Positions 11,284 through 33,993 of a stretch of DNA of 64,000 nucleotides are shown here, in pieces (the stretch's first letter is position 1; the number at the start of each line of letters is the position of its first letter). Under the pieces are notes generated by a model that searched no databases, had not been told where the DNA came from, and saw only the letters and a program-made list of their open reading frames with translations. The stretch comes from an uncultured Flavobacteriales bacterium (GTDB lineage Bacteria > Bacteroidota > Bacteroidia > Flavobacteriales_D > Crocinitomicaceae), in contig CAYUQU010000006.1 of the NCBI GenBank assembly GCA_964447015.1, forward strand, positions 1,841 to 65,840. Reading direction: 5' to 3'. The position numbers were made by a program, and so were the translations under genes.

Positions 11284-11439
11284 ATAAAATGAGAGGGATA
11301 GGATTTGTTTTAGGAGTGAAGAATTGACAGTTTAGCATACTAACCTCTTGAATAGAGTTGAGCTACAGAGGTATGAGTTTTTTAGTTATTTTTGGTGGGA
11401 GACAAGGAAGATGTGCATACTGATAAGTTGTAATACAAA

Positions 11440-11949
11440 ATGACAAGAAGCTGGATAATAACAGAGAAAACAATTAGTGTATTACAAATTATTTGGGGTG
11501 GGCTTATGCTCAGTTTGACAATTTGGAGTGCTAAATTATTGATTGATTTTGGAGTTGAACATCTTGAATTGACTTGGGAGAATATTTCCTTACCCAAGAT
11601 ACTCAAGAATTATCATTTTCGACTACTTCTTTCATTATTGACAATCTTTGGCGGGTTGACTTTAATGATTAATAAGAGAATTGGATGGATATTAAGCGTA
11701 GTTACTTCACTCTTATATGGAATTACAACAATTTTGGCGTTTCAGAAAGTAAAAATGGATACATCATTCAAACTTGATATTTATGATTTGTTAGCAGGGC
11801 TTATAGCAATCTTATTTTTTACAATATTTGGACTTCTCTTGACGAGACAATTTCGAAATAAGTATAAACCAACTAATAAAACATGGTGGATAATTGTTGG
11901 GCTTGTGATTTTACTATTGGTAGATAGATTATTAATTGATGGATTTTAA
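11440..11949 (+). CDS. Hypothetical membrane protein (about 5 TM)
   Basis: 169-aa hydrophobic ORF. Confidence 0.75.
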   Translation: MTRSWIITEKTISVLQIIWGGLMLSLTIWSAKLLIDFGVEHLELTWENISLPKILKNYHFRLLLSLLTIFGGLTLMINKRIGWILSVVTSLLYGITTILAFQKVKMDTSFKLDIYDLLAGLIAILFFTIFGLLLTRQFRNKYKPTNKTWWIIVGLVILLLVDRLLIDGF

Positions 11950-11963
11950 TTTGGAAAATTTAT

Positions 11964-12680: not shown

Positions 12681-12736
12681 ACTATATTGATGAAATTTCT
12701 ATATGTCTTAACTTTCAGGTATTTAAAAACGACACC

Positions 12737-13411
12737 ATGCAAACAAAAAAACATACAGCTTGGAAAAAAAACCGAAAATTCGGTGACGTAATGGGTGGTC
12801 GAAAAAAAATCAAACTTGCTGATAAGGTGTTTAGTAGACAACATAATTTGACTGCCCCTAATGAAGGAGATGAAATACCAATTTTTATAATTGATAATCC
12901 TTCACGCGATTTTTATTTTCCTGTAACAGTCGAAGAAGTTAAACAAATACTCGGTCGACTTCCTAACGACCACACAGATCACTTGACTCACATTTGGTTT
13001 CAAAAGGTTAAAAAATCGGATTATTTAGAAGGGAAAACTTTTCAAGGTTCTTTTATTTGTGGAAGTGGCGTTTATTTAATTATTCTTCATCCATTTCCAA
13101 CCGATAACAAAATGAGATTTGGAAAATCAAAACCCCTAAAGAAGACACTTAATTTTTATAAGAATTACGTGACAGAACTGAAAGAAGATAAAGATGGCTG
13201 GTTTCTACAATGGACTGAAGAAACGATAAAAAAGTATTATTTGGAAAGCTTATTTCTTCACGAAATCGGACACTCAATTGATAGTTTTTATAAACGCTAT
13301 TGGAGCAAGGCAACAGCACAAAAAAGAGAAAATTGGGCAGACAATTATGTGGCGGTTTGGGCAGACCAAATTAGAGAAACGTATGAGCCGAATGAAATAC
13401 TAAATAAATAA
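12737..13411 (+). CDS. Hypothetical protein with HExxH (zincin-like) motif
   Basis: LFLHEIGH followed by E.WADNY. Confidence 0.7.
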   Translation: MQTKKHTAWKKNRKFGDVMGGRKKIKLADKVFSRQHNLTAPNEGDEIPIFIIDNPSRDFYFPVTVEEVKQILGRLPNDHTDHLTHIWFQKVKKSDYLEGKTFQGSFICGSGVYLIILHPFPTDNKMRFGKSKPLKKTLNFYKNYVTELKEDKDGWFLQWTEETIKKYYLESLFLHEIGHSIDSFYKRYWSKATAQKRENWADNYVAVWADQIRETYEPNEILNK

Positions 13412-13420
13412 CCCCTACCA

Positions 13421-14203
13421 ATGTTCAATCTTTTTAAATCCAAAAAGCATCACGAACCTTTAAACTATGAACTAAGAAAGTATTTCGAGAATAGCTTTCT
13501 TTGGTTGATGCAGGAATTTCCCGAAACTAAAATTGAGGAGCGAAAAATCTTAGTACCGACAAAAGAGGACTTTCCAATAACGTGGAATAAAAGCCATGAG
13601 AATGCCTATGATGCGCTCAAGATTATTTGTCATAATATGGAGATAGATCCAAACGAAGTTGAAATGGACTTTTATGATAATGGGATTAAGGAATTTGACA
13701 TGGGAGCGTCTGTGATCTTTATTGAGTCTGATCCCGATAATCCTGAGGCAGCAGGACTTTATCATCACGAAAAAGTAAACGGCAAATTCCAAATCTCCAT
13801 TGACCAAGCTTTAATTGAATCTCCTGATTCTCTAATAGCCACTATTGCACATGAACTCGCCCATGTAAAATTGTTGGGTGGAAAGAAACTAGAAGAAAAT
13901 GACGAAATGCTCACAGACTTCACAACCGTTTTCTTTGGCTTAGGGATATTCAATGCAAACATGTCTTTTCAGTTTGACAGGAAAACAGACAGATGGGGAT
14001 ACAAAATTCTAGGTTACCTTAAAGTTGAAGAATGGGCTTATGCTTTAGCGTTATTGGCGTTTATTAGAAATGAAGACAACCCAAGTTGGAAAGAATACCT
14101 TAGCAGAGGAATAAAAAGTGATTTCGAGAAAAGCTTAAAGTATATGATTGAGAATGAAAAAGAAATTTTTCGATTTGAGGATGGTGAAGGGGGATGTGGT
14201 TAG
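13421..14203 (+). CDS. Hypothetical protein with HExxH (zincin-like) motif
   Basis: ATIAHELAHVKL followed by DEMLTD. Confidence 0.75.
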   Translation: MFNLFKSKKHHEPLNYELRKYFENSFLWLMQEFPETKIEERKILVPTKEDFPITWNKSHENAYDALKIICHNMEIDPNEVEMDFYDNGIKEFDMGASVIFIESDPDNPEAAGLYHHEKVNGKFQISIDQALIESPDSLIATIAHELAHVKLLGGKKLEENDEMLTDFTTVFFGLGIFNANMSFQFDRKTDRWGYKILGYLKVEEWAYALALLAFIRNEDNPSWKEYLSRGIKSDFEKSLKYMIENEKEIFRFEDGEGGCG

Positions 14204-14260
14204 TGATAACGTGTTTACAATCAAGTTCTAGAATTATGTTTTAATAATTTAATTGTAAAT

Positions 14261-15034
14261 TTGAATTTATCAGGCGAATACGGAAGTGAGCAGGGCAAAA
14301 TAGAATTAATCATCTCTGAAAATATTATTTACAAGTATATGAATGAAGTCGTAAAAATGATCTTAGAAAACAAGCCTGAGTACAAAATTTACATTGATTA
14401 TTTGGATAAAATTTATTCAAATAAGTTTTCTAAGAAAATTACTTCGGAGGAAAATGATATTAATGCTCTATCTTTATTGACCGAAATAGAATTAGGTTAT
14501 ACACTCCATCAATTATTTGAAGATGTAAAATATGAGCCAACAATAAATGGAAAAAAACCTGATTGGTTGGTAAATAGTTTCGGAGAAAACCTGATTTTTG
14601 AAGTTCGCAAAATCAATCCATTAGAAAAAGACGTTACTGATACTATAACACGTTTTAAGAATGGTGAGTATTTTGGAAATACTAGAACTACGTTTTCTTT
14701 TTCCCAGAAGGAATTTGAGGCTTCAATGGGTAAAATAATAGCAAAAGAGGAGTCATACAGAAGTCTCATTACCGAAGATAATTATAAACTTTTAGTATAT
14801 TTTGATGTTGTAATGTTGCCTTGTTATTGTCTGACAAAAGATGATTTTAGAGGCCTTTTTGATTTTGATAAACCCACTTTCCCATTAAGTAAATATCCGA
14901 CTTTTATAGAGAATGTATCGGGTATTTTAGCGAAACCAAATTTTGGAGGTAAAGTTTTTATTTCCAATAATCAGTCCAAGTATCTTTTAAACAACGAAAA
15001 TCTAAAAATATTGGAAAACCTAAATGAATTCTAG
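14261..15034 (+). CDS. Hypothetical protein, possible PD-(D/E)XK nuclease fold
   Basis: E...KKPDWLV...IFEVRK pattern. The start (TTG) is uncertain. Confidence 0.55.
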   Translation: MNLSGEYGSEQGKIELIISENIIYKYMNEVVKMILENKPEYKIYIDYLDKIYSNKFSKKITSEENDINALSLLTEIELGYTLHQLFEDVKYEPTINGKKPDWLVNSFGENLIFEVRKINPLEKDVTDTITRFKNGEYFGNTRTTFSFSQKEFEASMGKIIAKEESYRSLITEDNYKLLVYFDVVMLPCYCLTKDDFRGLFDFDKPTFPLSKYPTFIENVSGILAKPNFGGKVFISNNQSKYLLNNENLKILENLNEF

Positions 15035-15092
15035 ACATAATCATCGTTTTATATTAAATTAAAATCTATCAAACTTCTCAAATGGATCAAAA

Positions 15093-15494
15093 ATGATAAG
15101 CATATTATTATTCATATTTTTTCTTTATATGTCTGTTCGAACTACAAGAAGGGAACTTAAATATTTTAAACAGTATCTTTTTTTAAAACAGAATGGAGCA
15201 GAAATTTCTGCAAAAATTGTGGATTATGTGCCTAATAAATATACTTATGGAGGGATTCCTGTTCTGGAGTATCAATTAAATGATTTCAATTTTAGAAACC
15301 CCATAATACATTCAGAGTTTGACTTTTCTCATTTATTTTATCGTCCAGGGAAAATAGTCACAATATATTGTGACAAAGAAAACAATGAGATATGTGTAAT
15401 AAAATCAAAAACTCAACTACTTATTATTCTTCTAGGTATGCTCCTCATTTATGGAGGATTGATTTTTTCGATTTTTGTACTTTGTGATTGGTAG
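15093..15494 (+). CDS. DUF3592-like membrane protein
   Basis: TM - beta-rich soluble part (GKIVTIYCD) - TM architecture. Confidence 0.6.
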   Translation: MISILLFIFFLYMSVRTTRRELKYFKQYLFLKQNGAEISAKIVDYVPNKYTYGGIPVLEYQLNDFNFRNPIIHSEFDFSHLFYRPGKIVTIYCDKENNEICVIKSKTQLLIILLGMLLIYGGLIFSIFVLCDW

Positions 15495-15556
15495 GTGGTG
15501 TCACCTGTTATTTGTTTAAAAAAGTAACAGCAAATAATTCAACACATACGCTGAAA

Positions 15557-15892
15557 TTAGTTTTCCAATATATAAGTCGTTACCATTATAGTTGCTCCGC
15601 TTGCAAGTGCTATAGACCCTCGGACTTCAGAAATAATTTTAAAACCGTTGTTTCGATATTTTAGTAGGATTTTATTTATTGTTATTTGATTTGACTCAAG
15701 GTCTTTATAATAGAATGGTATGAGTTCAACCTCTTCGATTTTCTTCTCATTTTCTATAACTATAATTTTATTATAGCCTTTGTCTGCCGACTCGTAAGTA
15801 TTAATTGTCAACAAGCTGTTGTTTTGAGCAAACACGTTGTTTAAAAATAAACAAGTCAAAATAACGAATGTGAATGCAATAACCTTTTTCAT
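15557..15892 (-). CDS. Small secreted hypothetical protein
   Basis: Signal peptide MKKVIAFTF...VFAQ. Confidence 0.75.
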   Translation of the reverse strand: MKKVIAFTFVILTCLFLNNVFAQNNSLLTINTYESADKGYNKIIVIENEKKIEEVELIPFYYKDLESNQITINKILLKYRNNGFKIISEVRGSIALASGATIMVTTYILEN

Positions 15893-16000
15893 AATTTTTC
15901 TCGAATTTATTTAACCTCGTTCCAATCGGCATAAAGCTAGTGAAAAATAAGCCATTTCTGTAGCAATACACTGAAGAATTTACTCGAGAAAATAGTTCAA

Positions 16001-16030
16001 TTAACCGCAATGGCGCGGAGTACGCAAAGG
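16001..16030. repeat. Half-copy (arm) of the TTAAC-(CRCRRAG)n element
   Basis: ttaaccgcaatggcgcggagtacgcaaagg; same unit structure as the left arm at 5043. Confidence 0.55.
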
Positions 16031-16140
16031 GATTTATTATAATTAAAACTTATGTATCATTGAATAAAACTCTGTGATTGTCTGATGTTTAATAAAAAAA
16101 ATAGTACTTTTGAAAGTAAGAAATCGTTAAATAGAGCATC

Positions 16141-16695
16141 ATGATAAATAGCAAATTAGTTTTACAACTACTTATACTCTTATTTTCTTCTTCATGTGTC
16201 GCTCAAGTTGTATGGGAGGAAGAAAGTCAATCTGCAAGAATGGATGGTATTATACAGGTTGAGGATGTCTCTATGCAAGAGTTATACGAACGTTCTAAAG
16301 TGTGGATGACGAACAATATTACTTCGTCAAATAAATTATCAGAACACGAGCAAGATTCAGTTAAACAACTGACAGGACATGGTAATGTTATTTTATCTGG
16401 TGGAGGACCTATTAAGAATAAAACGTTAGATTTTAACATCACACTTTATTTCAAAGATGGAAGGTTGAAATATGTAATAAATCAACTAGTTTTGATGGAT
16501 TATGGAGGCGCAATAGGTTCTACAGATGGAAGCCCAACATATCAAGAGATGGATCCACTATATGAAAAGCAGTTTAAAAAGGGGCAAGGTAAAAAAGGTA
16601 TTCAACTTTTAATTGATGAAAAATTATCCTCATTAATAAATTCATTAACTAATGCTGTAAATAAACAAAGTAAATCGGAAACTGAGGGATGGTAA
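16141..16695 (+). CDS. DUF4468-like secreted protein
   Basis: Signal peptide; ELYERSKVW and FKDGRLKYVI motifs. A TACTTTTG promoter box lies upstream. Confidence 0.7.
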   Translation: MINSKLVLQLLILLFSSSCVAQVVWEEESQSARMDGIIQVEDVSMQELYERSKVWMTNNITSSNKLSEHEQDSVKQLTGHGNVILSGGGPIKNKTLDFNITLYFKDGRLKYVINQLVLMDYGGAIGSTDGSPTYQEMDPLYEKQFKKGQGKKGIQLLIDEKLSSLINSLTNAVNKQSKSETEGW

Positions 16696-22033: not shown

Positions 22034-23347
22034 ATGAAGACGAAAACATTAAAAAAGAATAAAGTTAATGTAGTGACCTTGGGTTGCTCAAAGAACTTGT
22101 TTGACTCAGAGGTGATGATGGCACAGCTTAAGGCGAATAAGTTTGAGGTGGAGCATGAAGCCAAGCAAGATGATTCGGAAATCGTTATCATCAACACGTG
22201 TGGATTTATTGACAATGCCAAGCAAGAATCTATCGATACGATTTTGCGTTACGTGGATGCGAAGAAAGAGGGAATGGTAGACAAAGTCTATGTGACCGGA
22301 TGTCTTTCGCAACGCTATAAAGATGATTTGGAGACAGAAATTCCAGAAGTGGACGCTTTCTTCGGAACGCGCGATTTGCCACGGTTACTCAAAACATTAA
22401 AAGCCGATTACAAACACGAGTTGGTAGGAGAACGTCTCCTGACAACTCCTTCGCATTATGCTTATTTCAAGATTGCAGAAGGTTGTGACCGTCCGTGTTC
22501 ATTCTGCGCGATTCCAATTATGCGTGGTAAGCACGTGTCAACTCCAATTGAGGAATTGGTAAGACAAGCAAAAGGACTCGCTGCGCAAGGAGTGAAGGAA
22601 TTGATGCTCATCGCACAAGATTTAACGTATTACGGTTTAGATATTTACAAGAAACGCAATTTGGCGGAACTCGTGCAGCAAATCGCTGATGTGGAAGGTA
22701 TCGAGTGGGTACGTCTCCATTATGCTTTTCCAGCCGGTTTCCCGATGGATGTGTTGGAAGTGATGAAGTCGCACCCAAACGTGTGTAATTACCTTGATAT
22801 GCCATTGCAACACGGTTCTACTCGAATTCTACAAGCCATGCGACGTGGAATAACACGTGAGAAGACTGAAGAACTTGTAGCGACCATTCGCGAAAAAGTA
22901 CCTGGAATTGCACTGAGAACCACATTGATTGCAGGTTACCCAGGAGAAACCGAAGTAGATTTCCAAGAAATGTACGACTGGGTGGAAAAAAGTCGCTTTG
23001 ATCGTTTAGGAATCTTCACTTACTCGCACGAAGAAAATACACACGCTCATAATTTCGAAGACGATGTACCGGAAGACGTAAAACGTCAGCGTGCAGATGC
23101 GATTATGGAGCTTCAGTCAGGAATTTCATACGAACTGAATCAAGAGAAAATAGGAAAGACATACAACGTACTTTTCGACCGCATCGAAGGTGATTATTTC
23201 ATCGGCCGCAGCGAATTTGACTCTCCCGAAGTAGACAACGAAGTCCTAGTAAAGAAATCCGAAGCTTATGTACGAATCGGAGATTTTGCCAAAGTTGAAA
23301 TTACCTCGGCAGATCATTATGATTTGTATGGGACAGTGGTGGAGTAA
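22034..23347 (+). CDS. rimO: Ribosomal protein S12 methylthiotransferase
   Basis: TLGCSKN..DSE, NTCGFI, radical SAM EGCDRPCSFCAIP, and TRAM domain GRSEFDSPEVD. Confidence 0.97.
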   Translation: MKTKTLKKNKVNVVTLGCSKNLFDSEVMMAQLKANKFEVEHEAKQDDSEIVIINTCGFIDNAKQESIDTILRYVDAKKEGMVDKVYVTGCLSQRYKDDLETEIPEVDAFFGTRDLPRLLKTLKADYKHELVGERLLTTPSHYAYFKIAEGCDRPCSFCAIPIMRGKHVSTPIEELVRQAKGLAAQGVKELMLIAQDLTYYGLDIYKKRNLAELVQQIADVEGIEWVRLHYAFPAGFPMDVLEVMKSHPNVCNYLDMPLQHGSTRILQAMRRGITREKTEELVATIREKVPGIALRTTLIAGYPGETEVDFQEMYDWVEKSRFDRLGIFTYSHEENTHAHNFEDDVPEDVKRQRADAIMELQSGISYELNQEKIGKTYNVLFDRIEGDYFIGRSEFDSPEVDNEVLVKKSEAYVRIGDFAKVEITSADHYDLYGTVVE

Positions 23348-23422
23348 GTTTCGCATAAATGATATCTTAGAAATATTTGTAGAAGTTGTAAAATAATTAA
23401 GTTATCAATTAGATAAGTTTTT

Positions 23423-23450
23423 AACCGTTTCGAAAGGAGCGGTTTTTTTT
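23423..23450 (+). terminator. Intrinsic terminator after rimO
   Basis: aaccgtttc-gaaa-ggagcggtt followed by a T-run. Confidence 0.75.
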
Positions 23451-23708
23451 GTGCGTCTTTGTTTTTCTCAAATACTTCGGGACAATTATGGTACATCGCT
23501 GGATACGGGTGTTTTTTTTTATAAAGGGATAACTAGTTTTGAATCAATAGTTTTCAATAGAATAACGTTTAAGTCGCCTACCTTCATACTACAATTGTCC
23601 GTGTTTTGTCCTACGAACATTTATCCTAAAGGAGTGTTCCTTCACTACTTTTAGCTTATGAAATCATGCGAAAATTTCACTCTATTGAAAACAAACTCAT
23701 AAACAAGT

Positions 23709-26201
23709 ATGAAAAATTTATTCTTTCTCTTTATCTTTTTTGCAGCATTCACACATGCAGCAAATGCCCAATCCAATCAATATCTTCATTTTGATGGAGT
23801 AGATGATTATGTTTCCCTTTCTGAAGGTGCTCAATTTGTAAATGGTTCAACTACGATTACAATGGCTGGTTGGTTTTACACTGAAGAACTCATTTACGGT
23901 CAAGGAATGATGAGTATTCGTGGTGGCGGAACAGGAACTGGTGAAATGTATTTAATCCAATTAAGCAACGGAACAATTGAATGTCGTTTGGTCACGACAA
24001 CAGGCTTACATCAATTTGTAGCACCAGAAGGTACAATTATAGCTGGGCAATGGCAACACATTGCATGGGTGTTTAATCAAACAACAGTACAACTCTTTGT
24101 CGATGGAGTTTCGATTGGCTCGAGTAGTGCTTCAGGGACTTTTCAATCTGCTAATCGACCATTTTCGATTGGTAAGTGTATTCAATCAGGGTTTAATTTC
24201 ATTTTTAAAGGTAGAGCAGATGAAGTTTCCCTTTGGAATAAAGCATTGAGTCAAGTTGAAATTCAAGACATGATTGACAATGAATTAGTTGGAGATGAAG
24301 CGAATTTGCAAGTGTATTACAAATTTAATCAAGGTACTCCAGGTGGAAACAATTTGGGTATTTCTCAACTATTAGCGAATAGTGGAGAGGCGAATAAAAA
24401 TGGAGATTTATTTAATTTTGCACTCAATGGTTCTGTATCAAATTTTGGAGGAACATTGGATCCAAGTTTTCAAGTGATCAACTTCTCTCTCATTCCAAAT
24501 AAGTTAATCACAGATGAGCCTTTTGAAGCAGTTGCAACTGTAAATTCAGGTTTGCCTTTGAGTTATGAAATAGTTTCTGGCCCAGCAACTATGGATGGAA
24601 CAACCATTACTTTAAATGGAACTACAGGAACTGTGATAGTAAAAGCGAGTCAAGGTGGAGATGGCTTTTTTGATCCTGCTGAAGATGCATATGTTTCTTT
24701 TGAAGTACTTGATCCTGCAACTATTTTGGTAGAAGCTTCTATTCTTCATCCACTTGCAGGTAACGTTCATGTTTCTTCATTGATCCCCGTTCAAGTAGCG
24801 TTTAAAGCTGAAATAGATTACCCAGAATTATTTGAAATTAATCAAATTTCTGCAAATGTTGGTGGCGATAATGTAGAATTAGTGAATCATGGAAATGGTT
24901 ATTTTACAGGTTGGTGGACACCTCAGTCGTATGGTAGTCACACGCTTGAAGTGTTAGCGCAAAATAATTATGGTGCATCAAGTACTGCAACGGCTGTGAT
25001 TAATTTACAACAAGAAACGACGGATCAAACTGTGAATGGAACAACAAATGTTTGGGTGAATGCTGATTATCCATCACAAACAGTTCAAGCAGATTTACCG
25101 AGCTATAGTGGTGCATTTGACCAAATTATAGGAAAGCTTTACATCGATTGTCCAAGTGGCGGTTGCGACCCATGGGACAGGGTTTCACATGTTGAAGTAC
25201 AAGGTAAAGACGGAGAATGGTTTGAAATTATTCGTTATTTGACTCCTTATGGAGTAGCATGTCAAAGTGAAATTGATTTGACTGATTTTAGTTCATTGTT
25301 ACGTGGAAAAACAACTTTCCGTGTGAATTTAGGAACTCAAGGTAACGGATTTTTATACACACTTGAACTTCAATACCGTGCAGGAACCGAAGTAAATCCA
25401 TTCAGTACTGTAGAAAAGTTATGGTACCAAACATATCAATTTGGAGACATGGCTAACCTGCAACCAGCGGAAGAAATAACTGTGAATTTTCCTTCATCGA
25501 CAACTGCTGCAAAAATTAAATTGGTGTCTTCAGGACATGGTTGGGGAAATAATAATACTGGAAATGCAGCAGAGTTTCAGGCAAATACACACAATATTTT
25601 GGTAGATAATGTGGCTACATTTTCACAATACAATTGGAATATTTGTAATCCAAATCCAGATGGATGTAGTCCGCAAAATGGAACTTGGTACCACAATAGA
25701 GCGGGATGGTGTCCTGGAAGTATTGCACAATTTTTCGATTATTCAATGAATCCCTTTACTTCTCAAAGTGAAGTCGATTTGAAATACATTTTCGATCAAA
25801 GTTATATTGACTATTGTCACCCAAATAATCCAGATTGTGTTTCAGGACAAACATGTCCTAATTGCGACGATGGTTTCAACCCACATTTGGTGGTAGCTTC
25901 TTACCTAATTTCATACAGTCAATCACCAATCATTGAATTGGGAATTAGCCCAAATGAGAATAGAACGTTTGTGAATTTATATCCAAATCCATCTGCTGGG
26001 GTGTTTTTTGTAGATCATTCTACAGATGTGAAAGAAATCATCGTTACTGATTACTCGGGACGTGAGGTGAAAAGAATTTCTGAAAAATCGGGGGTTGAAA
26101 CAACACGAATTGATTTAAGTGGTCAGCCATCAGGTATTTACCTTGTATCTATCAAAAAATCGAATAATGAGATGGTAACTAAAAAATTGATTTTAGAATA
26201 A
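23709..26201 (+). CDS. T9SS-secreted LamG + peptide-N-glycosidase F-like protein
   Basis: N-terminal LamG (WQHIAW, FKGRADEV.LW); PNGase F-like motifs CDPWDR, EIIRYLTPYG, GHGWG...AEF and RAGWCPG; C-terminal T9SS domain (LYPNPS...G.YLV.I...TKKLILE). Confidence 0.85.
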   Translation: MKNLFFLFIFFAAFTHAANAQSNQYLHFDGVDDYVSLSEGAQFVNGSTTITMAGWFYTEELIYGQGMMSIRGGGTGTGEMYLIQLSNGTIECRLVTTTGLHQFVAPEGTIIAGQWQHIAWVFNQTTVQLFVDGVSIGSSSASGTFQSANRPFSIGKCIQSGFNFIFKGRADEVSLWNKALSQVEIQDMIDNELVGDEANLQVYYKFNQGTPGGNNLGISQLLANSGEANKNGDLFNFALNGSVSNFGGTLDPSFQVINFSLIPNKLITDEPFEAVATVNSGLPLSYEIVSGPATMDGTTITLNGTTGTVIVKASQGGDGFFDPAEDAYVSFEVLDPATILVEASILHPLAGNVHVSSLIPVQVAFKAEIDYPELFEINQISANVGGDNVELVNHGNGYFTGWWTPQSYGSHTLEVLAQNNYGASSTATAVINLQQETTDQTVNGTTNVWVNADYPSQTVQADLPSYSGAFDQIIGKLYIDCPSGGCDPWDRVSHVEVQGKDGEWFEIIRYLTPYGVACQSEIDLTDFSSLLRGKTTFRVNLGTQGNGFLYTLELQYRAGTEVNPFSTVEKLWYQTYQFGDMANLQPAEEITVNFPSSTTAAKIKLVSSGHGWGNNNTGNAAEFQANTHNILVDNVATFSQYNWNICNPNPDGCSPQNGTWYHNRAGWCPGSIAQFFDYSMNPFTSQSEVDLKYIFDQSYIDYCHPNNPDCVSGQTCPNCDDGFNPHLVVASYLISYSQSPIIELGISPNENRTFVNLYPNPSAGVFFVDHSTDVKEIIVTDYSGREVKRISEKSGVETTRIDLSGQPSGIYLVSIKKSNNEMVTKKLILE

Positions 26202-26234
26202 ACAGACTCTGATCAGAAACGATATGGGTAATAT

Positions 26235-26263
26235 AAAAGACGATCTTCGGGTCGTCTTTTTTT
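26235..26263. terminator. Bidirectional intrinsic terminator
   Basis: aaaagacgatc-ttcg-ggtcgtcttttttt, with an A-run before and a T-run after. Confidence 0.85.
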
Positions 26264-26284
26264 ATGATAAATAATTACAAAGCC

Positions 26285-26395
26285 TTAACTTTCCTTCAAC
26301 TTTTTACCTAATTTCTCAAAATTTTCCCCAACAAAATGCCCTGAGCTCATCGCGAGAAAGGTTTTGTTGTGCCAGTTTTGCGAGCGGATATAGTT
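26285..26395 (-). pseudogene. Diverged orphan copy of the mpl 3' end (copy 3)
   Basis: Translates NYIRSQNWHNKTFLAMSSGHFVGENFEKLGKKLKES* versus mpl NHIHAQNWHNKALLMMSSGNFDGIDFEKLGEELK*; 25 differences in 102 aligned nt, no indels. Confidence 0.88.
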
Positions 26396-26453
26396 TGTGT
26401 CTCTGTTGCCAGAAAAGTATTTTCAGTATGTTACTTGTGTTATTTGTTCTCTT

Positions 26454-27068
26454 TTATTCAATAAAACCGTACTTAATAAACAAATCTTTTAGTATTCTAT
26501 AATCAGCTGAATACATGCTGATTGATTCGGTATAGTTAAATGCAATCTTTCCATTGCCACATTCAAAGCAGATTTCATAGATTCCTAAAATGTGACCACT
26601 GGAATCAAGAAAAACAACTGCGTGACGGGGTATGTAACACATCGTCAATATGTTTGATTTTCGTGTTCCTAAAGAGGATTCGATTGTAGCAAGATAATCA
26701 GTTGTATCAATTTCTCTCCATTTATACATTCTACTACTGTCAAGCCCAAGGACAACCTGAGTCATGAAGGATGAGTCTAATTTTGGTAAATATTTCAAGT
26801 CAGTTTTGATAACCGATTCCATATAGCACCCTTTTTTACGTTTCTTCGCATCAGTTGGAATTGTTTTTCTTTTCTTTCCATCGTCACAAAGCGGTCTTAA
26901 TTGCACAAAACAAATTTTATGCACCTTATTTAGTATGGTATCCGCCCATTCTAGATTTATTTTTTGAATTTTTGTATCGATTTCAGGTTGAGGTGAAATT
27001 GAGTCATATACTTGACTAAATGTATAAGTAGGGAGGGAGTAAAGTAATATTATTATCCAGGTTTTCAT
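26454..27068 (-). CDS. Secreted hypothetical protein
   Basis: Likely start MKTWIIILLYS at 27068 (signal peptide); CYIPRH...ICFEC motif. Confidence 0.75.
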   Translation of the reverse strand: MKTWIIILLYSLPTYTFSQVYDSISPQPEIDTKIQKINLEWADTILNKVHKICFVQLRPLCDDGKKRKTIPTDAKKRKKGCYMESVIKTDLKYLPKLDSSFMTQVVLGLDSSRMYKWREIDTTDYLATIESSLGTRKSNILTMCYIPRHAVVFLDSSGHILGIYEICFECGNGKIAFNYTESISMYSADYRILKDLFIKYGFIE

Positions 27069-27215
27069 ATTACAGTCAATGATTTGGGACAATATCTAGT
27101 ATGGTGTTCAAACCAAAGTTGTTTTTCGAAGATAAGAAAAATCAATGAAGCTTTTGAAGTTGTTTCGTTCAATTAAATAATATTTCGAAGCGCTTAATAT
27201 TTATCAAACATATCA

Positions 27216-27818
27216 CTACAACATGGCATAAAAGATCACCAGCAGTGTTCCAGGAAGCACAAAAACAAACGAAACAATGCGTGCAAAGTTAAACCAGGCA
27301 CTTTGTCGTTTGAAAATATAGGTGAAGAAAGGAATCAGCAGAAATATTTGGAATAAAGGAAACCATGTAAAGATAGATCTCTGTCTGATTTCTGCGTGAT
27401 ATACTATATCTCCACCATTGGCTATGCTTTGGTAGTTTAATTTCTTTCCTGTTTGAAAAATAGGAGTATAGGTGAGTTCGATTGTGTTTTCCACATGCGT
27501 ACCCCAATCAAAATATTGTGGAATAAACATATATCCTTCAATGTCTAACACAGCGTGTCCTTCATAGATCCAATTTTGATCAATTTTCCAGGAATTCTCT
27601 GTTAGTTTTTTTGATGGACCATCGAATAAAACCTCGATCGTAGTAATCAATGCCATTAATGTTGTGAAGATGACAACCACTTTAAAGAAAAACCACCATT
27701 TACCTGAAGTAATTCGCTCGTAAAATTCTTTGTCTTCGCGCTCTTCTTTTTCTTTTCTCAGCCGCAATTTTTCTACTGCAATTCGAAGGGATTCTTCTCG
27801 GTTTATATTTCTAGTCAT
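27216..27818 (-). CDS. Hypothetical membrane protein
   Basis: 200-aa ORF with a charged N-terminal helix and three TM segments. Confidence 0.8.
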   Translation of the reverse strand: MTRNINREESLRIAVEKLRLRKEKEEREDKEFYERITSGKWWFFFKVVVIFTTLMALITTIEVLFDGPSKKLTENSWKIDQNWIYEGHAVLDIEGYMFIPQYFDWGTHVENTIELTYTPIFQTGKKLNYQSIANGGDIVYHAEIRQRSIFTWFPLFQIFLLIPFFTYIFKRQSAWFNFARIVSFVFVLPGTLLVIFYAML

Positions 27819-27859
27819 AAATTTTAGTAATAGCTATAATGTAAAAAATTTTTCGAAGT

Positions 27860-27928
27860 CAATTGTTGGTTTGTCAGTTCCAGAGATGGTAGTGAGCCGT
27901 AATTCACCAACCTCCCTTCAACATTTTT
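27860..27928 (-). ncRNA. Candidate Flavo-1-like small structured RNA
   Basis: Minus strand gaagggaggttggtgaattacggctcactaccatctctggaactgacaaaccaacaa forms a bulged hairpin directly after a TATCTTAG promoter-like box (27942-27935). It resembles my recollection of the Flavo-1 motif; not checked against Rfam. Confidence 0.45.
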
Positions 27929-27990
27929 TTCGCGCTAAGATATATAAATTTCATTAAACGGTGCTTACTAAGGCTTGAGTGTAGGTACTG

Positions 27991-28578
27991 TTAGTGATTT
28001 GGATTCTCTTTATTTTTGTCTTTTAAATACTCATCAGTAAAATGCCCTCTTTGTTTTTGTTTTGAAAATTTACCTTCGTTATATGACTTTGAATCTCCTT
28101 TTGGAATCGATAAGGAAGTCCAATTATTTTCCGCCAACATTTTTCCCAAAAAAACAATCTGTCCAATATGATATGGATAATGAGCAAGTTGTCTGTTTAT
28201 GGCTTCTGTTACTGTGTGGCCTTGATTTCGGATGTAAATAATTTTGTCAAGGTCATCATTTGTCAAAGAGTCAATTGCGTTAAAAAGGCAAGCCCAACCT
28301 GAGTTCCATTTGTCTAAAAGTTCTTGTCTACTTTTTATGTCGTTTTCAAATTCAGCGTCTCTTTTACGAAATTCTTTTTCGCCGTCTGAAGTCAAAAAGT
28401 CCGTCCAACGCGAAAGCATATTTCCCCAAAGGTGTTTTACAATAGTCGCTATGCTGTTACTGTCGTCATTATATTGCCAAAATAACTTGTCATCTTGCAC
28501 TTGAGAAAAGGTCTTTTCTCCAAGCATTTTGTAATACTCAAATTGCTTTTTAACGCTGATTAAATAATCATTTGTCAT
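27991..28578 (-). CDS. DUF1572 (DinB superfamily) protein
   Basis: SNSIATIVKHLWGNMLSRWTDFLTSDGEK..R.RDAEF and QLAHYPYHIGQIV motifs. Confidence 0.92.
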   Translation of the reverse strand: MTNDYLISVKKQFEYYKMLGEKTFSQVQDDKLFWQYNDDSNSIATIVKHLWGNMLSRWTDFLTSDGEKEFRKRDAEFENDIKSRQELLDKWNSGWACLFNAIDSLTNDDLDKIIYIRNQGHTVTEAINRQLAHYPYHIGQIVFLGKMLAENNWTSLSIPKGDSKSYNEGKFSKQKQRGHFTDEYLKDKNKENPNH

Positions 28579-28613
28579 ATTTTTATTTTTAGTTGGTGTT
28601 AACTGCTGAATGT

Positions 28614-29159
28614 TTAATAATTATGTTTAATGTATTCTTTGCATCCAACAATAAGCGGAGTAAGGACTCTGTTTATGTTTAACGGAAACTCCAAATACTC
28701 TTTTGCATCGACATTAAATCGGTCGAAAAGCACGTCTCGTAGTTTTCTATGTCCAGAGTCCTGTTCATTATATCTACCCAATGAATGTGCATATATATTT
28801 CTCAACCTTCTCACGATTTCCACTTCGATGAATCCTGGGCTGTCCTTGTTTAAACTTGCACTTTCTCCAAGGAATTCATAGTAATTGAGAATAGCATATA
28901 ATCGCAGAACAAAGTTTTGATTAATGAAATGTCCAATATCATTGTTTTCCTTTCTTGATTCTTCGGTAAGGGCACTATTAAAACGTAACTCAAAGTTTAG
29001 TCCAGATTTTTGGAAGAATTCGGGCAATTGAATTACTGTTTGCCCAATTTGTGGTTCACCAATTTTCGGGAATCGAGCTCGGACTTTTATATGATACGAA
29101 CGAAACTCATCAATTTCATTAAATATTTCTTCAAGAGAAGCTTTTCGGATCTGTTTCAA
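28614..29159 (-). CDS. Hypothetical protein with HEPN-type RxxxxH motif
   Basis: Helical protein with VRRLRNIYAHSLG (RNxxxH). TTG start. Confidence 0.6.
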   Translation of the reverse strand: MKQIRKASLEEIFNEIDEFRSYHIKVRARFPKIGEPQIGQTVIQLPEFFQKSGLNFELRFNSALTEESRKENNDIGHFINQNFVLRLYAILNYYEFLGESASLNKDSPGFIEVEIVRRLRNIYAHSLGRYNEQDSGHRKLRDVLFDRFNVDAKEYLEFPLNINRVLTPLIVGCKEYIKHNY

Positions 29160-29167
29160 AGTGTTTT

Positions 29168-29305
29168 GCAGTTAACTTTTTGCGGATTGGCGAAGGGGAT
29201 TATTTAATCCACTAAACTTCCAAACACCGCTTAGGCTGCGAAATTAACACTAAATTTTTATTTGAAAGCACACGCCAGCCACTTTTACCAAGGCACTGTT
29301 AGCGG
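29168..29305. mobile_element. attC-like 138-bp imperfect palindrome
   Basis: On the minus strand it begins CCGCTAAC and ends GTTAACTGC. Inner arms ttggtaaaagtgg and ccccttcgccaa can pair. It ends 8 bp before the TTG of the HEPN gene. Confidence 0.55.
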
Positions 29306-29367
29306 AAGTTTTTTGTTGAAGTTAACCAATAGCTTAATTAATCCTTGTGTGTTTGGAATCTTTGTTT

Positions 29368-29375
29368 TATGTTTG
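29368..29375 (+). promoter_or_regulatory. Bacteroidota sigma-70 -7 box of the TAC operon
   Basis: TATGTTTG, 22 nt upstream of the toxin start. Confidence 0.6.
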
Positions 29376-29397
29376 CACTTTACTAATAGGTTAAGTC

Positions 29398-29784
29398 TTG
29401 GAGAATTTCTATTTACTTTGTGAATGCCATCAGAATAAATTTAGAGTTTATCTAAATCAAAGCAATTCTGACTTGACAAAAAAGTTCACTGAAATAAATA
29501 GAAATGAAAAGTTGACAAGAAAGTTTGTATTAGTGATAGAAGCGATAAAAAATAAGACGGAGAATAAAACCCAATATAATTGGGAAGAAGATTTTGAATT
29601 TGGAAAAGTGTATGCAATAAAAATTGATTCACATAGGTTTTACACGCTTCAAACTACAAATGTAGGATATAGGGAACTTTATATTTGTAGATATGGCAAG
29701 AAAGAAAGTCAAGAAAATACCAAAAAATTGACAACAACTATAAAGACAATTCAAAGTATTCAAATCGAAAAAATAGAATTATGA
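29398..29784 (+). CDS. Putative RelE/HigB-like toxin of a TAC system
   Basis: 128 aa, basic; VYAIKI..HRFY...LYICRYGKKESQ resembles the HigB/Gp49 pattern RI.Y...LL..F.KK.Q. ATGA overlap with the HTH gene. Confidence 0.6.
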   Translation: MENFYLLCECHQNKFRVYLNQSNSDLTKKFTEINRNEKLTRKFVLVIEAIKNKTENKTQYNWEEDFEFGKVYAIKIDSHRFYTLQTTNVGYRELYICRYGKKESQENTKKLTTTIKTIQSIQIEKIEL

Positions 29785-30218
29785 ACGAAGTAACACAAAG
29801 ATTCTCTATTCAATCTTATATAGATAAGAATAGAGAAAAAATTGATGAATCTTTAATTAGCTTACGTTTAATGAAAGAGGTTGATAGATTTCTAGATTAT
29901 GAGAAATTAAGTAATAAAGATTTGGCATTAAAAATGGGATATTCAGAATCTTATATTAGTCAACTTATGTCTGGTGTCAAAAATGTAAATATTTCATTTA
30001 TTAATAAATTTGAGAAATGTTTTGACGCCAAGTTTGACTTTAAAATTTATTTAAAAAATGAGAAAGTTTTTCTACATAGATTGGATGAAAGAACTCAATT
30101 TAACATAAACATAAATTTAAATATGTTTTTAATCAGGGAAGACCATTCAATGTTTTCATTTACTCAAAATAGTAAATCAATGTTCAATGTTACCGATGTA
30201 GAATACAAAACTTTGTAA
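29781..30218 (+). CDS. XRE/HigA-like HTH antitoxin with C-terminal extension
   Basis: LSNKDLALKMGYSESYISQLMSG HTH followed by an aromatic/beta-rich tail (candidate chaperone-addiction region). Confidence 0.8.
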   Translation: MNEVTQRFSIQSYIDKNREKIDESLISLRLMKEVDRFLDYEKLSNKDLALKMGYSESYISQLMSGVKNVNISFINKFEKCFDAKFDFKIYLKNEKVFLHRLDERTQFNININLNMFLIREDHSMFSFTQNSKSMFNVTDVEYKTL

Positions 30219-30223
30219 TTATT

Positions 30224-30670
30224 ATGGAAAGTAAAGAGAAAGAAATACAATTTCAAATGAGAATTTCTTCAATAAGTGTTTTGAGATTTTCTCAGCATGA
30301 TATAGAAGAGTTTGATCCTAACAAAGTTGATGCGATAGAATATCAATCTGACTTCGAGGTGAAAACATTACATGAAACCAGTGAAATTGCGGTTGAAACA
30401 ACATTGAAGTTAAAGGTTCAAGAGCTGGATAGTTATTTTGGTGAGTTAAAAGTTTTGATGAAGTTTCATATTTCACCATTTGATACCGTGATAAAAAAAG
30501 TTGATGATGGATATCAAATTCCTGATTTATTAATATTCAATTTATTTAATATTCTAATTGGTACAATAAGAGGGATTTTATATGAAAAATTAAGAGGAAC
30601 GATACTCCAAAATGAAGTTTTACCGCTTTTTGATGTTAGAGATTTAATGAATGCAAAAAAAATTAAATAA
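30224..30670 (+). CDS. SecB-like chaperone
   Basis: 148 aa, acidic, with four beta-strands, then GTIRGILYEKLRGT.LQNEVLPLFD (SecB-like helix plus LP motif). Confidence 0.8.
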   Translation: MESKEKEIQFQMRISSISVLRFSQHDIEEFDPNKVDAIEYQSDFEVKTLHETSEIAVETTLKLKVQELDSYFGELKVLMKFHISPFDTVIKKVDDGYQIPDLLIFNLFNILIGTIRGILYEKLRGTILQNEVLPLFDVRDLMNAKKIK

Positions 30671-30881
30671 GACATCTTTTATTGTGTATGAAGATGAAAC
30701 ATTTTGATTTCTTGTTTGTTGCGAAGCTCTAGCTAACTAATTTATAATCTATGTTTTATAACACCTTACTTCCTATCAGAGTGCAATAGTCGCTACTTCA
30801 TTGCGTATTATTTTCATAAGCCTAAATATAGCTTTTATTCCTATAAATCAGTAAAAGCTTTTCCATAGAAACCCCAATTTA

Positions 30882-31008
30882 CTACCTCAATTCCTCCCCC
30901 AACTTCTCAAAATCAATCCCATCAAAATTCCCTGAGCTCATCATGAGGAGGGCTTTGTTGTGCCAACTTTGTGCGCGAATGTGGTTGAGGACGTGCTCGG
31001 CTTTGTTC
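30882..31008 (-). repeat. 127-bp direct repeat of the mpl 3' end (copy 2)
   Basis: Matches 32641-32767 with 5 substitutions; translates NKAEHVLNHIRAQSWHNKALLMMSSGNFDGIDFEKLGEELR*. Confidence 0.97.
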
Positions 31009-31098
31009 CTTATTCTTTTGAAATAATTCTGACGTGATCTCGCATTTAGGTGAGGTAGAGAGACGGGATTTTCGTTCTTTTTATTTATTCTTTCCCTA

Positions 31099-31214
31099 TT
31101 GAAGTGAAGCCAAAATGGTGTTTATTTTTGTATTTTGGCTGCACTTCAATTTAATTTATTATCTCTAAAAGCAGCCAAAATGATAAATATTTTATATTTT
31201 TGGCTGCACTTCAA
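31099..31214. promoter_or_regulatory. Tandem pair of inverted repeats (65-bp period) upstream of the ATPase gene
   Basis: ttgaagtgaagccaaaat (31099) / attttggctgcacttcaa (31132); gcagccaaaat (31171) / ttttggctgcacttcaa (31198). Confidence 0.8.
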
Positions 31215-31224
31215 AATTTTGCTT

Positions 31225-32634
31225 ATGCCTAAAAAAATCATAGGAAGAGATTTAGAGAAAGAAAGATTGGAAGACGCATTAGCCTCTCAAAGGTCGGAGC
31301 TGATAGCAATTTATGGACGAAGAAGGATAGGTAAAACTTATCTAATAAGAGAATACTATTCCAAACACATCATATTTAGCTTTTCAGGTCTAAGAAACGG
31401 AACTAGACCAGATCAGATTGAGAATTTTATGCTTGAGTTGAACGAATTCACAGACAAATTCAAAGATGAAAAGCCAGAGAATTGGCTTCATGCTTTCAGT
31501 ATACTAAAACAATTCTTAAAAGGAATACGAAAAACAAAAAGGAAGAAAGTCATATTCATAGATGAGTTTCCTTGGGTTGACACATTAAGATCGGGGTTCC
31601 TTCCAGCTTTTGAGAACTTCTGGAATACATACTGCACAACAAGAGACGATTTAATAGTAGTTATTTGTGGCTCAGCAGCTTCATACATGATTAAAAAAGT
31701 AATCAAAAATAGAGGAGGTTTACACAACAGGATTACACAAAAGATTAAATTATCCCCTTTTCAATTGAGAGAGGTGAAGGAATTTTTCGAAAACAAAGGG
31801 ATAAGTCTTCCTGATATCGAAATTCTAAAAATATATATGGCTCTTGGAGGAGTTGCGGAATACTTGGAACACGTCAAAGTAGGAGATTCATCAGTTACTG
31901 CCATTAATCGTCTCTGCTTCCAAAAAGGAGCTCAATTGGAATATGAATTTGATGAAGTCTTCAAATCACTTTTTGAGGAGGGGTCATATCATGAACAAAT
32001 TATCCAATCTTTATCCAAAGGGCCAAAGAAAGGAATGTTCAGAGATGAAATCCTAAAAGACCAAGGACTCAGTTCAGGAGGACAATTTACAAAATCAATG
32101 AATGAATTAATAGAGTCTGGTTTTGTCGAGAAATATCAATCATATCGAGAGAATAGAAAAATGACTCTTTATCGGATTTTTGATGAATTCTGCCTGTTTC
32201 ATTTACAGTTTATTGTTCCATTTAAAGGAAACCCTTGGACACAACTTTACACTAAAAAGGAGTACGAGTCTTGGAGTGGTTATGCATTTGAGATGGTTTG
32301 TTACAAGCATGTTGAATGTATCAAGAGGGAGTTAAAATGTGACCAGATTAATTCTAAGAATTACAGTTGGGTCAATAGTAAAGCACAAGTTGATCTTGTT
32401 ATTGATCGAGATGATAACATTGTAAATCTATGCGAAATCAAATTCTACAATGACACATGTAAAATAGAGGCTAATTATGCAGATAGCTTGCGAAATAAGG
32501 AAACTCAATTTAGAACCGAAACAAGCACCAGAAAGGGAATCAACACAGTAATGGTCACAACGTGGGGAATTACAGGAAAACATGCTGTTGGACTGGTCAC
32601 AAATAGTTTGACCAAGGAATGCTTGTTTAAGTGA
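31225..32634 (+). CDS. AAA-family (archaeal-type) ATPase with wHTH and C-terminal PD-(D/E)XK/DUF234-like domain
   Basis: Walker A YGRRRIGKT, Walker B FIDEFPW, C-terminal QVDLVIDR...LCEIKF. Start reassigned to ATG 31225. Confidence 0.9.
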   Translation: MPKKIIGRDLEKERLEDALASQRSELIAIYGRRRIGKTYLIREYYSKHIIFSFSGLRNGTRPDQIENFMLELNEFTDKFKDEKPENWLHAFSILKQFLKGIRKTKRKKVIFIDEFPWVDTLRSGFLPAFENFWNTYCTTRDDLIVVICGSAASYMIKKVIKNRGGLHNRITQKIKLSPFQLREVKEFFENKGISLPDIEILKIYMALGGVAEYLEHVKVGDSSVTAINRLCFQKGAQLEYEFDEVFKSLFEEGSYHEQIIQSLSKGPKKGMFRDEILKDQGLSSGGQFTKSMNELIESGFVEKYQSYRENRKMTLYRIFDEFCLFHLQFIVPFKGNPWTQLYTKKEYESWSGYAFEMVCYKHVECIKRELKCDQINSKNYSWVNSKAQVDLVIDRDDNIVNLCEIKFYNDTCKIEANYADSLRNKETQFRTETSTRKGINTVMVTTWGITGKHAVGLVTNSLTKECLFK

Positions 32635-32640
32635 GATCCC

Positions 32641-33993
32641 CTATTTCAATTCCTCCCCCAACTTCTCAAAATCAATCCCATCAAAATTCCCTGAGCTCAT
32701 CATGAGGAGGGCTTTGTTGTGCCAATTTTGCGCGTGAATGTGGTTGAGGACGTGCTCGGCTTTGTTCATTACGATTACTCTTCCTCCAAAGGCATTTTGT
32801 ACTTCAGAAACGGAGAGTTCGGGGAGTTTTTTGTTCGCAACGACGTCTGGGTTGAAATAGACGACCGCTACATCAGCTTTGTCCATTGCGTTTTTGTAGA
32901 GGGGTAGAAATTCCTTATTCAAACTGCTGAATGTGTGCAGTTCCATGTAGGCAAAGAGCTCTTTGTCTTCGTACTGTTCTTTTACTGCAGAAGTGGTGGC
33001 TTTCAGTTTGGAAGGTGAATGCGCAAAGTCTTTGAAAAGCACAAAATCGGGTGTTTCAGTCACTTTTTGAAGGCGCTTTCCTGCTCCAGTAAACGATTGC
33101 ATAGCAGTTAAGAAATCTGAAGGTTCAATTCCCATTGCGCGACCGATTTCCATTGCACCCATCATATTCTGAAGGTTGTGCTGACCGAAAACATGCATGT
33201 GATATTCGTGGTTGTCGTAGGAAACAATAGTGGCATTGTCCTCGACCATATATTTGGGTGTTTGGTAGGCAATCACATCCAATTTTCCCTGCCATTTTTC
33301 ACCCAATTTTTTCACTTCAGGATCTTCGGTGTTGTAAATCAATCGTCCGTTGGGTTCTATTTTTTGACAGAAAATATCGAATTGCTCCACGTAATTCTCA
33401 AAAGTCGGAAACACATTGATGTGATCCCATGCAATTCCAGATATCAACGCAATATTGGGGTGGTAAAGATGAAATTTCGGTCGTCTATCCATAGGGGAAG
33501 AGAGGTATTCGTCACCTTCCAGAATAGCGAATTTTGGACCGTGTTCCAATTTAACCATACAATCATACCCTTCAAGTTGCGCACCAACCATGTAGTTGAT
33601 AGGAATCGATAATTCCTGACACACATGCAAAATCATGCTTGTGATAGTCGTTTTTCCGTGACTTCCGCCAATTACAACCCGAGTTTGGTTTTTGGTTTGT
33701 TCGTAAATGTATTCAGGATATGAAAATACGGGGATGTTCAATTCCAACGCACGCTTCAGTTCAGGATTGTCTTCGCGTGCATGCATGCCTAAAATCACCG
33801 CTTCCGTTTGTGGAGTGATGCGTTCGGGAAACCAGCCTTCCGTCTCGGGTAGAATTCCTTCTTTCGCCAAACGTGAACGCGAAGGCTCAAAAATCTGATC
33901 GTCAGAACCAGTTACCTGTTCTCCCTTTCGTTTCAGTGCGATGGCTAAATTATGCATGGCGCTACCACCTATGGCTATGAAATGTATCTGCAT
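32641..33993 (-). CDS. mpl: UDP-N-acetylmuramate:L-alanyl-gamma-D-glutamyl-meso-diaminopimelate ligase (MurC-like)
   Basis: HFIAIGGSAMHNLA, GSHGKTTITSM, EGDEY, DFAHSP.K and MSSGNFDG motifs. Start reassigned to ATG 33993. Confidence 0.9.
   Translation of the reverse strand: MQIHFIAIGGSAMHNLAIALKRKGEQVTGSDDQIFEPSRSRLAKEGILPETEGWFPERITPQTEAVILGMHAREDNPELKRALELNIPVFSYPEYIYEQTKNQTRVVIGGSHGKTTITSMILHVCQELSIPINYMVGAQLEGYDCMVKLEHGPKFAILEGDEYLSSPMDRRPKFHLYHPNIALISGIAWDHINVFPTFENYVEQFDIFCQKIEPNGRLIYNTEDPEVKKLGEKWQGKLDVIAYQTPKYMVEDNATIVSYDNHEYHMHVFGQHNLQNMMGAMEIGRAMGIEPSDFLTAMQSFTGAGKRLQKVTETPDFVLFKDFAHSPSKLKATTSAVKEQYEDKELFAYMELHTFSSLNKEFLPLYKNAMDKADVAVVYFNPDVVANKKLPELSVSEVQNAFGGRVIVMNKAEHVLNHIHAQNWHNKALLMMSSGNFDGIDFEKLGEELK

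Follow-up and report, generated by a model that had tools for sequence, protein, structure and literature searches.

The 3′ end of an mpl-like Mur ligase gene occurs three times, always on the same strand, in a 64,000-nucleotide (nt) stretch of DNA, hereafter the window, from an uncultured Flavobacteriales bacterium of the family Crocinitomicaceae (contig CAYUQU010000006.1, positions 1,841 to 65,840). The three copies, with two segments of foreign cargo between them, were very probably produced by serial insertion inside the mpl 3′ end, whatever enzyme carried it out. Serial insertion of DNA that brings its own terminus explains the common orientation of the copies, the sharp edge of their similarity at the stop codon, their order of age and the intact state of the gene. 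The gene, its three ends and the terminator at the far side of the array are as follows.

32641..33993, minus strand: functional mpl-like Mur ligase gene, 450 amino acids (aa) from the ATG at 33993
32641..32771, minus strand: copy 1, the mpl end in use, reading NKAEHVLNHIHAQNWHNKALLMMSSGNFDGIDFEKLGEELK and a stop codon; last 131 nt of the gene
30882..31012, minus strand: copy 2, a displaced mpl end reading NKAEHVLNHIRAQSWHNKALLMMSSGNFDGIDFEKLGEELR and a stop codon; 5 differences from copy 1
26285..26395, minus strand: copy 3, a decayed mpl end and the oldest of the three, reading NYIRSQNWHNKTFLAMSSGHFVGENFEKLGKKLKES and a stop codon; pseudogene remnant
26235..26267, no strand: hairpin terminator common to a PNGase-like gene and the spot where the old mpl end would have terminated

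The orientation of all three copies is that of mpl itself. A profile hidden Markov model (HMM) built from 81 orthologous mpl C-termini and run on six-frame translations of the window returned exactly three matches, to copy 1 (E = 3e-24), copy 2 (E = 1e-24) and copy 3 (E = 4e-13), with the next match above E = 1. Alignment and HMM thus confirm the three same-strand ends claimed in a preliminary description of this DNA and, with one remnant measuring 131 nt and the other about 108 nt, also its claim that the copies are unequal in length. Apart from one 42-nt hairpin pair, the mpl ends are the sole long repeat family in the 64 kb. The differences between copies 1 and 2 fall across 126-131 nt, and their similarity is limited by the stop codon at one edge and by codon N409 at the other; beyond the stop codon, no downstream DNA is common to the copies. 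An edge at the stop codon is expected if incoming DNA supplies the terminus together with its own downstream DNA. Between copies 3 and 1 there are 25 mismatches over 102 aligned nt and zero indels; copy 3 stays in frame and has its own stop codon two codons further on, about 24 nt from the terminator at 26235-26260. Copy 1 is in frame and retains LLMMSSGNFDG, a stretch invariant in the family, indicating that the target gene is intact.

The identity of the target rests on several annotations. The source record calls a longer open-reading frame (ORF) for it, starting with GTG at 34140. The product carries the Pfam domains Mur_ligase, Mur_ligase_M and Mur_ligase_C, and the NCBIfam murC and mpl models both match the gene below their cut-offs. 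Eighty species of the Crocinitomicaceae and Flavobacteriales have orthologues with 66-78% aa identity, and those of the relatives are annotated as Mpl by JGI. In this comparison of orthologues the best named relative is Wandonia haliotis, with 78% aa identity, and the organism belongs to the Crocinitomicaceae.

The ages of the copies were read against a close clade of four genomes, consisting of the window and its relatives L084 (89% nt identity), L085 (83%) and L083 (76-84%). The preliminary description had pointed to an Arg codon, CGC, present in copies 2 and 3 where copy 1 has CAC. The shared codon is there, but the special link between copies 2 and 3 falls away, since CGC is the ancestral state: it is the codon of L083-L085, and CGN (Arg) is also found in L001. 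The AGG-TAG ending of copy 2 is common to L084 and its GCA to L083 and L085, leaving AGT as the only variant private to copy 2 (at most one private change), and copy 2 is 96% identical to the mpl end of L084. Copies 1 and 2 are thus ordinary alleles of the clade. Copy 3 has a nucleotide identity of 0.755 to copy 1, 0.70-0.74 to L083-L085 and at most 0.62 to 80 other species, and it alters residues that are invariant in about 85 orthologues, with LLMMSSGNFDG changed to FLAMSSGHFVG. Its divergence at the three codon positions is 0.29/0.12/0.32, compared with 0.02-0.07/0.02-0.03/0.19-0.41 among functional orthologues. Because invariant residues have changed and the changes are spread over all codon positions, copy 3 is a remnant drifting without constraint. 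Its divergence of about 25% is greater than or comparable to the third-position divergence from L083 and L085, so the drift dates back roughly to the split of the window lineage from those two. The displacement of copy 2 is recent, and the gradient of divergence reflects age.

In the mechanism that we propose, DNA was inserted at least twice in succession within the final ~110-130 nt of the mpl-like gene and left an array of scars. Incoming DNA would recombine within the mpl 3′ end and bring its own copy of that end, leaving mpl intact, while the previous end would be displaced to the far side of the insert and decay there. The array would grow on the side nearest mpl, with copy 3 the oldest, followed by segment A with copy 2 and last by segment B with copy 1. 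The preliminary description had likewise claimed at least two additions, each with an mpl end and each pushing the older one outward, and the relaxed constraint on copy 3 together with the near absence of private changes in copy 2 bears this out. The agent would be site-specific integration of small genomic islets with an attachment site that includes an mpl-like terminus. The recombinase could have acted in trans from elsewhere in the genome or could have been lost, in which case both segments would be integrase-less remnants like cis-mobilizable elements (CIMEs). Decayed or trans-mobilized islets of this kind are, tentatively, the most likely agent; that a site-specific recombinase made the junctions is what we infer.

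One argument for integration comes from the same site in the close relatives. The FG-GAP gene upstream is common to all three, and the DNA from the mpl stop codon onward differs in each. In L083 the stop is followed by a 467-aa protein, a DUF4325 protein and a 182-aa protein, in L084 by a 186-aa ORF and in L085 by a TonB_C-like protein, on contigs that end 0.7-2.6 kb after mpl. The cargo at the site is therefore variable among relatives, as the preliminary description had expected. Since three close relatives have different DNA after the stop, the mpl site is a hotspot specific to this clade, with turnover on both sides; within 10 kb of mpl, an extra mpl end was found in 0 of 80 other species. 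At least four sequences begin right at the mpl stop within the clade (two in the window, at copies 1 and 2, one of the L083/L084 type and one of the L085 type), and this would be hard to obtain by random illegitimate joins, which favors integration. Downstream of mpl, L083 (about 11400-11510) and L084 (about 4735-4845) have in common a ~110-nt block of ~80% identity. It contains a hairpin, TTTTTGGT...ACCAAAA, lies at unequal distances from the stop and precedes different genes in the two relatives. The window lacks this block, and Rfam has no match for it.

Several results weigh against an integrative origin. None of the 52 window ORFs of at least 120 aa has a Pfam integrase, resolvase, recombinase or transposase domain, so the window holds no recombinase, as had been claimed. 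Both segments are fully visible and neither carries one, nor does the 0.7-2.6 kb visible after mpl in the three relatives. From 8 of the 80 species loci, ten integrase-sized ORFs downstream of mpl were picked by size, and every one proved to be a housekeeping or type IX secretion system (T9SS) gene; the domain scan of species loci covered those eight. Exact and degenerate mpl-end patterns found no element with an mpl-like end among viral contigs. The two displaced remnants are unequal, copy 2 having 131 nt from codon N409 onward and copy 3 about 108 nt from a start seven codons (21 nt) later, at an edge blurred by decay. The mpl ends have no attC-like structure, folding no better than shuffled sequences (z of +0.4 to +1.1). 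Finally, segment B holds just one gene and measures 1.76 kb when a repeat is included.

Other searches for an element were also negative. The same patterns matched, among metagenome contigs, only the L083 contig. The window contains no tRNA genes, and no Rfam family reaches threshold in the region or the whole window. No arm-type motifs are common to the DNA beside the repeats in the window and the relatives, bar the block in L083 and L084. An integrase-made array would be recognized by a recombinase in the array or in a relative sharing its attachment site, and neither was found in the window, in the visible flanks of the relatives, among the ten selected ORFs or in viral contigs.

The single gene of segment B can be followed to other genomes. 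Segment B is organized as follows.

31013..31097, no strand: unique 85-nt spacer that separates copy 2 from the ATPase cassette, a possible P-arm or filler of segment B
31098..31215, plus strand: two palindromic hairpins, AGCCAAAAT-N15-ATTTTGGCT inside longer stems, directly 5′ of the ATPase gene
31225..32634, plus strand: AAA+ ATPase gene (Pfam ATPase_2/AAA_14, weak DUF234)

The ATPase gene is convergent with mpl, and their stop codons are 6 nt apart. The block 31098-32636, comprising hairpins and gene, has 81-87% nt identity to loci in unrelated genomes, where the ATPase homologues (88-90% aa) stand in unrelated contexts and never beside mpl. Nucleotide homology with three of these loci, L089, L090 and L091, runs from the first hairpin exactly to the ATPase stop, and the hairpins, with 18-bp stems 65 nt apart (z = -7.9), are kept in position and form in L089 and L090. 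They are probably an operator or promoter region moving together with the ATPase gene. The 85-nt spacer does not resemble the DNA that flanks the cassette in L089 or L090. On plasmids and in IMG/VR only distant ATPase homologues were found, at no more than 41% identity. The many contigs of ~1.6-1.9 kb with ATPase homologues were considered as mini-circles, but they carry no information on this, as short-contig assemblies cut at gene length give the same size distribution.

In L089, a metagenomic genome, a direct repeat of 32 nt (5805-5836 and 7433-7463) borders the cassette on both sides, with 27 of 32 positions matching, and none of 500 shuffles was as good. The repeat consists of the last 17 nt of a neighboring Smr gene, its stop codon and the next 13 nt; in the downstream copy the stop codon is no longer present. 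This is the same kind of scar beside the same cassette at a different target, which an integrase specific for mpl would not predict, and it adds to the points against integration.

Homology-anchored capture without a dedicated recombinase would account for four of these weaknesses at once, namely the missing recombinase, the 21-nt difference in start, the one-gene segment B and the Smr scar. It could proceed by two routes, both of which duplicate and displace the mpl end. Either DNA from a sister strain pairs with the mpl anchor and its far end joins illegitimately slightly upstream of the recipient stop, which is homology-facilitated illegitimate recombination (HFIR), or a circle with an mpl fragment inserts through a RecA single crossover. 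A varying start position fits displacement arrays, the inserts are small, and the left junction of copy 2 shows a match, of only 3-4 nt (TAA.G). The variants that copies 1 and 2 have in common with L083-L085 moreover form a mosaic, as expected from sister-strain donors. Capture would, however, need two rare illegitimate joins, both inside the last 131 nt of mpl, and it leaves unexplained why at least four types of cargo start exactly at the stop codon. No switch of ancestry along mpl is visible with three relatives, HFIR occurs less often than homologous exchange by orders of magnitude (PMC5361080), and the cassette of L090 has no flanking repeat. We therefore regard capture as a serious possibility but a doubtful one, and favor CIME-like islets over it. 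The preliminary description had preferred capture to an integrase. The data do not decide between the two. The architecture is that of classical integrase-made arrays with integrase-less segments (PMC5704250, PMC3146451).

A broader form of capture would be a recombinase-independent ratchet, in which small defense cassettes are captured at the 3′ ends of conserved genes by homology-anchored recombination; we consider it rather unlikely. If true, each event would duplicate the gene end and push older cargo outward, so that an islet could grow without any mobile-element machinery, and the same scar of the ATPase cassette at mpl and at Smr would point to a general route of cassette acquisition in the Bacteroidota and not to an accident of one locus.

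The arrangement was checked against an independent assembly, the Logan contigs of run SRR10083315 (k = 31), which are 100% identical to the window at 22210-28362, 28333-30916 and 30979-32675. They back every junction between unique sequence and repeat, and they stop inside the repeat common to copies 1 and 2, where 30887-30916 is identical to 32646-32675 by blastn. From the positions of the 5 differences, the difference-free stretch between these copies is estimated at roughly 83-86 nt. Because the independent contigs break there, the order across this stretch rests on the original assembly. The junction of copy 1 and copy 2 could accordingly be in part a choice of the assembler, with the ATPase unit being a 1.76-kb circle or belonging to another strain, and the chromosome would then read cargo A, one mpl end and mpl, with copy 3 as the only truly chromosomal displaced end. 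The long stretch without differences, the break of the k = 31 assembly exactly at it and the fact that contigs alone cannot phase the variants on its two sides all fit this. The junction between the truncated copy 2 (from N409) and the 85-nt spacer does, however, sit in an independent contig, so the joining of a truncated mpl end to the ATPase unit is real, and ordinary 150-nt reads with large-k assemblers can span a repeat of this kind. Even as a circle, the ATPase unit would carry an mpl end, an attP-like state that supports mobility at the site. An assembly choice is thus quite improbable.

Least probable of all is that unequal crossing-over or slippage duplicated the mpl 3′ region locally and in tandem, with unrelated genes inserted between the copies later, which would suit the single orientation and similar lengths of the copies but not a similarity that ends exactly at the stop with no downstream DNA in common, copies that differ greatly in age, or copy 2 variants that are those of other strains and not those of copy 1, and which would need a separate insertion into each spacer.

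Three classes of mobile DNA were considered and rejected. Integron gene cassettes do not fit mpl ends that lack an attC-like fold in a window that lacks an integrase. A transposon with target-site duplication is contradicted by the lack of a transposase, the lack of inverted repeats at the segment ends and duplications of 108-131 nt. For a prophage or phage satellite, PHROGs gave only a generic HTH regulator and unknowns, and IMG/VR one ATPase homologue at 35%.

The cargo between the copies is foreign in composition, with a GC content of 25-36% compared with 37-45% in the flanking genes. Segment A, between copies 3 and 2, has seven genes in 4.5 kb, whereas segment B, between copies 2 and 1, has its one gene in 1.6 kb. 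Segment A contains the following.

26454-27092, minus strand: 212-aa protein with a signal-like N-terminus
27216-27818, minus strand: 200-aa membrane protein
27991-28578, minus strand: DUF1572/DinB protein
28614-29159, minus strand: 181-aa protein with an RNIYAH (Rx4H) motif and a weak Csx1/Csm6 HEPN match (E = 0.0034)
29398..30670, plus strand: three-gene module (PDC-M64-like trio) of 128 aa, 145 aa and 148 aa

The first four genes (26454..29159) run in the direction of mpl. In the three-gene module, the second gene (29781-30218) encodes the 145-aa regulator, of the HTH_3/XRE type by Pfam, and the third (30224-30670) the 148-aa protein. PADLOC gave moderate matches for these two, PDC-M64B (2e-7) and PDC-M64C (4e-9), and a strong one for the ATPase of segment B, PDC-S27 (E = 2e-172). 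The PDC families are candidates predicted by genomic embedding (10.1101/2024.01.29.577857). The description of the cargo as defense-like is accordingly borne out in part, by these matches to candidate families and a weak Rx4H motif in the 181-aa protein; it is put forward here as a lead, not as a finding. For the cargo proteins of unknown type, PHROGs, a PDB sequence search and NCBIfam gave nothing recombinase-like or otherwise informative. The module has a GC content of 25-30%, the lowest in the profiled region, which points to a distant source. The C-terminal part of the ATPase (window 32440-32634) shows a D...E-x-K pattern, VDLVIDRDDNIVNLCEIKF, as in PD-(D/E)xK nucleases, and a search by sequence matched no solved structure. 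A role of the ATPase as a replication initiator was considered and rejected, there being no support for it.

On the far side of the array, beyond copy 3 and the terminator, lies the PNGase-like gene.

23709..26201, plus strand: LamG/PNGase F-like protein, T9SS-secreted (Pfam), distal flank

Relatives of this gene have 82-88% aa identity, and their homology to the window is confined to a block, 23596-26233, that ends just before the terminator. Two of them, L092 and L094, also have a terminator there, built on a stem that differs in sequence. The PNGase relatives have no copy 3 and no mpl within reach, and their DNA past the terminator is different. An empty site, with PNGase gene, terminator and mpl adjacent as the preliminary description had expected, was not found among the close relatives or the PNGase relatives examined; the latter differ both past the terminator and in their upstream neighbors. 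The variable region may, judging from these flanks, extend beyond copy 3. The PNGase gene itself acts as a discrete block, in that homology with L092 and L094 starts about 5-110 nt before the gene and the neighbors differ on both sides. Beside the PNGase terminator, L092 has at 12605-15922 a NUDIX gene and a gene for a 972-aa PLDc_2-DEAD/ResIII-Helicase_C-DUF3427 protein of defense type.

Two further observations concern other places. Between a VWA/YfbK-like gene and ispE, the window has seven consecutive ORFs of small to medium size (11440-16695) with hardly any Pfam matches, two with HExxH-type motifs, one with a weak SprT-like match and one with a DUF4468 match. This run may be a second accessory islet, and no flanking repeat was seen around it. 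In L083, the interval 1407-1583 (minus strand) between two ABC-F genes matches the Rfam family Bacteroidales-1, suggested to be a 6S-like RNA, over its full length, with 56.2 bits just short of the gathering threshold of 60.

These results add the mpl-like 3′ end to the protein-coding sites at which accessory and candidate-defense genes stack in tandem. The age order of the insertions can be read clearly from the decay of the displaced ends, and the locus is a compact test case for whether integrase-less islets are decayed integrative elements or captures made by host recombination alone. Placement in a turnover hotspot also gives mild extra support for testing PDC-S27 and the PDC-M64-like trio as candidate defense genes. 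What is new here is the mpl-like target in the Crocinitomicaceae, the length of the replaced end, the single-gene segment and the parallel scar at Smr. Tandem accretion is already known as an architecture, and the mpl locus belongs with it by its architecture, not as a demonstrated CIME array.

The nearest single-insertion parallel is the e14 prophage of Escherichia coli, which supplies the icd terminus and leaves a 163-bp icd′ duplicate (PMC6379469). As with e14 (and phage 21) in icd, the 3′ end of a housekeeping gene is hit at mpl, its terminus is replaced and a pseudo-end of similar size is left on the far side. In contrast to e14, a single prophage insertion with its own integrase, the mpl locus has two stacked segments and neither phage genes (by PHROGs) nor an integrase. 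Integrase-less segments bounded by att repeats have been described as CIMEs and accretion (PMC5704250). The mpl locus resembles the tandems of CIMEs and integrative and mobilizable elements at fda in Streptococcus thermophilus (ICESt1/ICESt3-related) in having integrase-less segments with gene-end repeats stacked at the copy that restores the gene. Those tandems, however, have known integrase-bearing relatives and one att core, whereas no integrase-bearing relative was found for the mpl locus and its boundaries differ by ~21 nt.

Stacking on a larger scale is known from Dehalococcoides, where 15 ssrA islands lack integration modules (PMC3146451), and from the tycheposon islands of Prochlorococcus, where older elements are pushed into the island by newcomers (10.1101/2020.12.28.424599). 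There too, tandem islands lie 3′ of one gene with direct repeats of its 3′ end, and many segments lack integration modules. The targets in those islands are transfer-messenger RNA (tmRNA) or tRNA genes with repeats of ~20 bp and some integrases, while mpl is a protein gene with repeats of 108-131 nt and no visible integrase. HFIR, which needs no recombinase, has been proposed for displacement arrays, including type VI secretion system (T6SS) effector-immunity genes and Rhs orphans (PMC5361080). The mpl locus is like the T6SS effector-immunity arrays of Vibrio cholerae and the orphan arrays of Rhs and contact-dependent inhibition (CDI) systems in its constant 5′ part and in its displaced 3′ fragments, which accompany cargo in one orientation. 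It is unlike them in that those arrays concern polymorphic toxins whose variable 3′ ends are the selected cargo, whereas mpl is a housekeeping gene whose ends are nearly identical in function.

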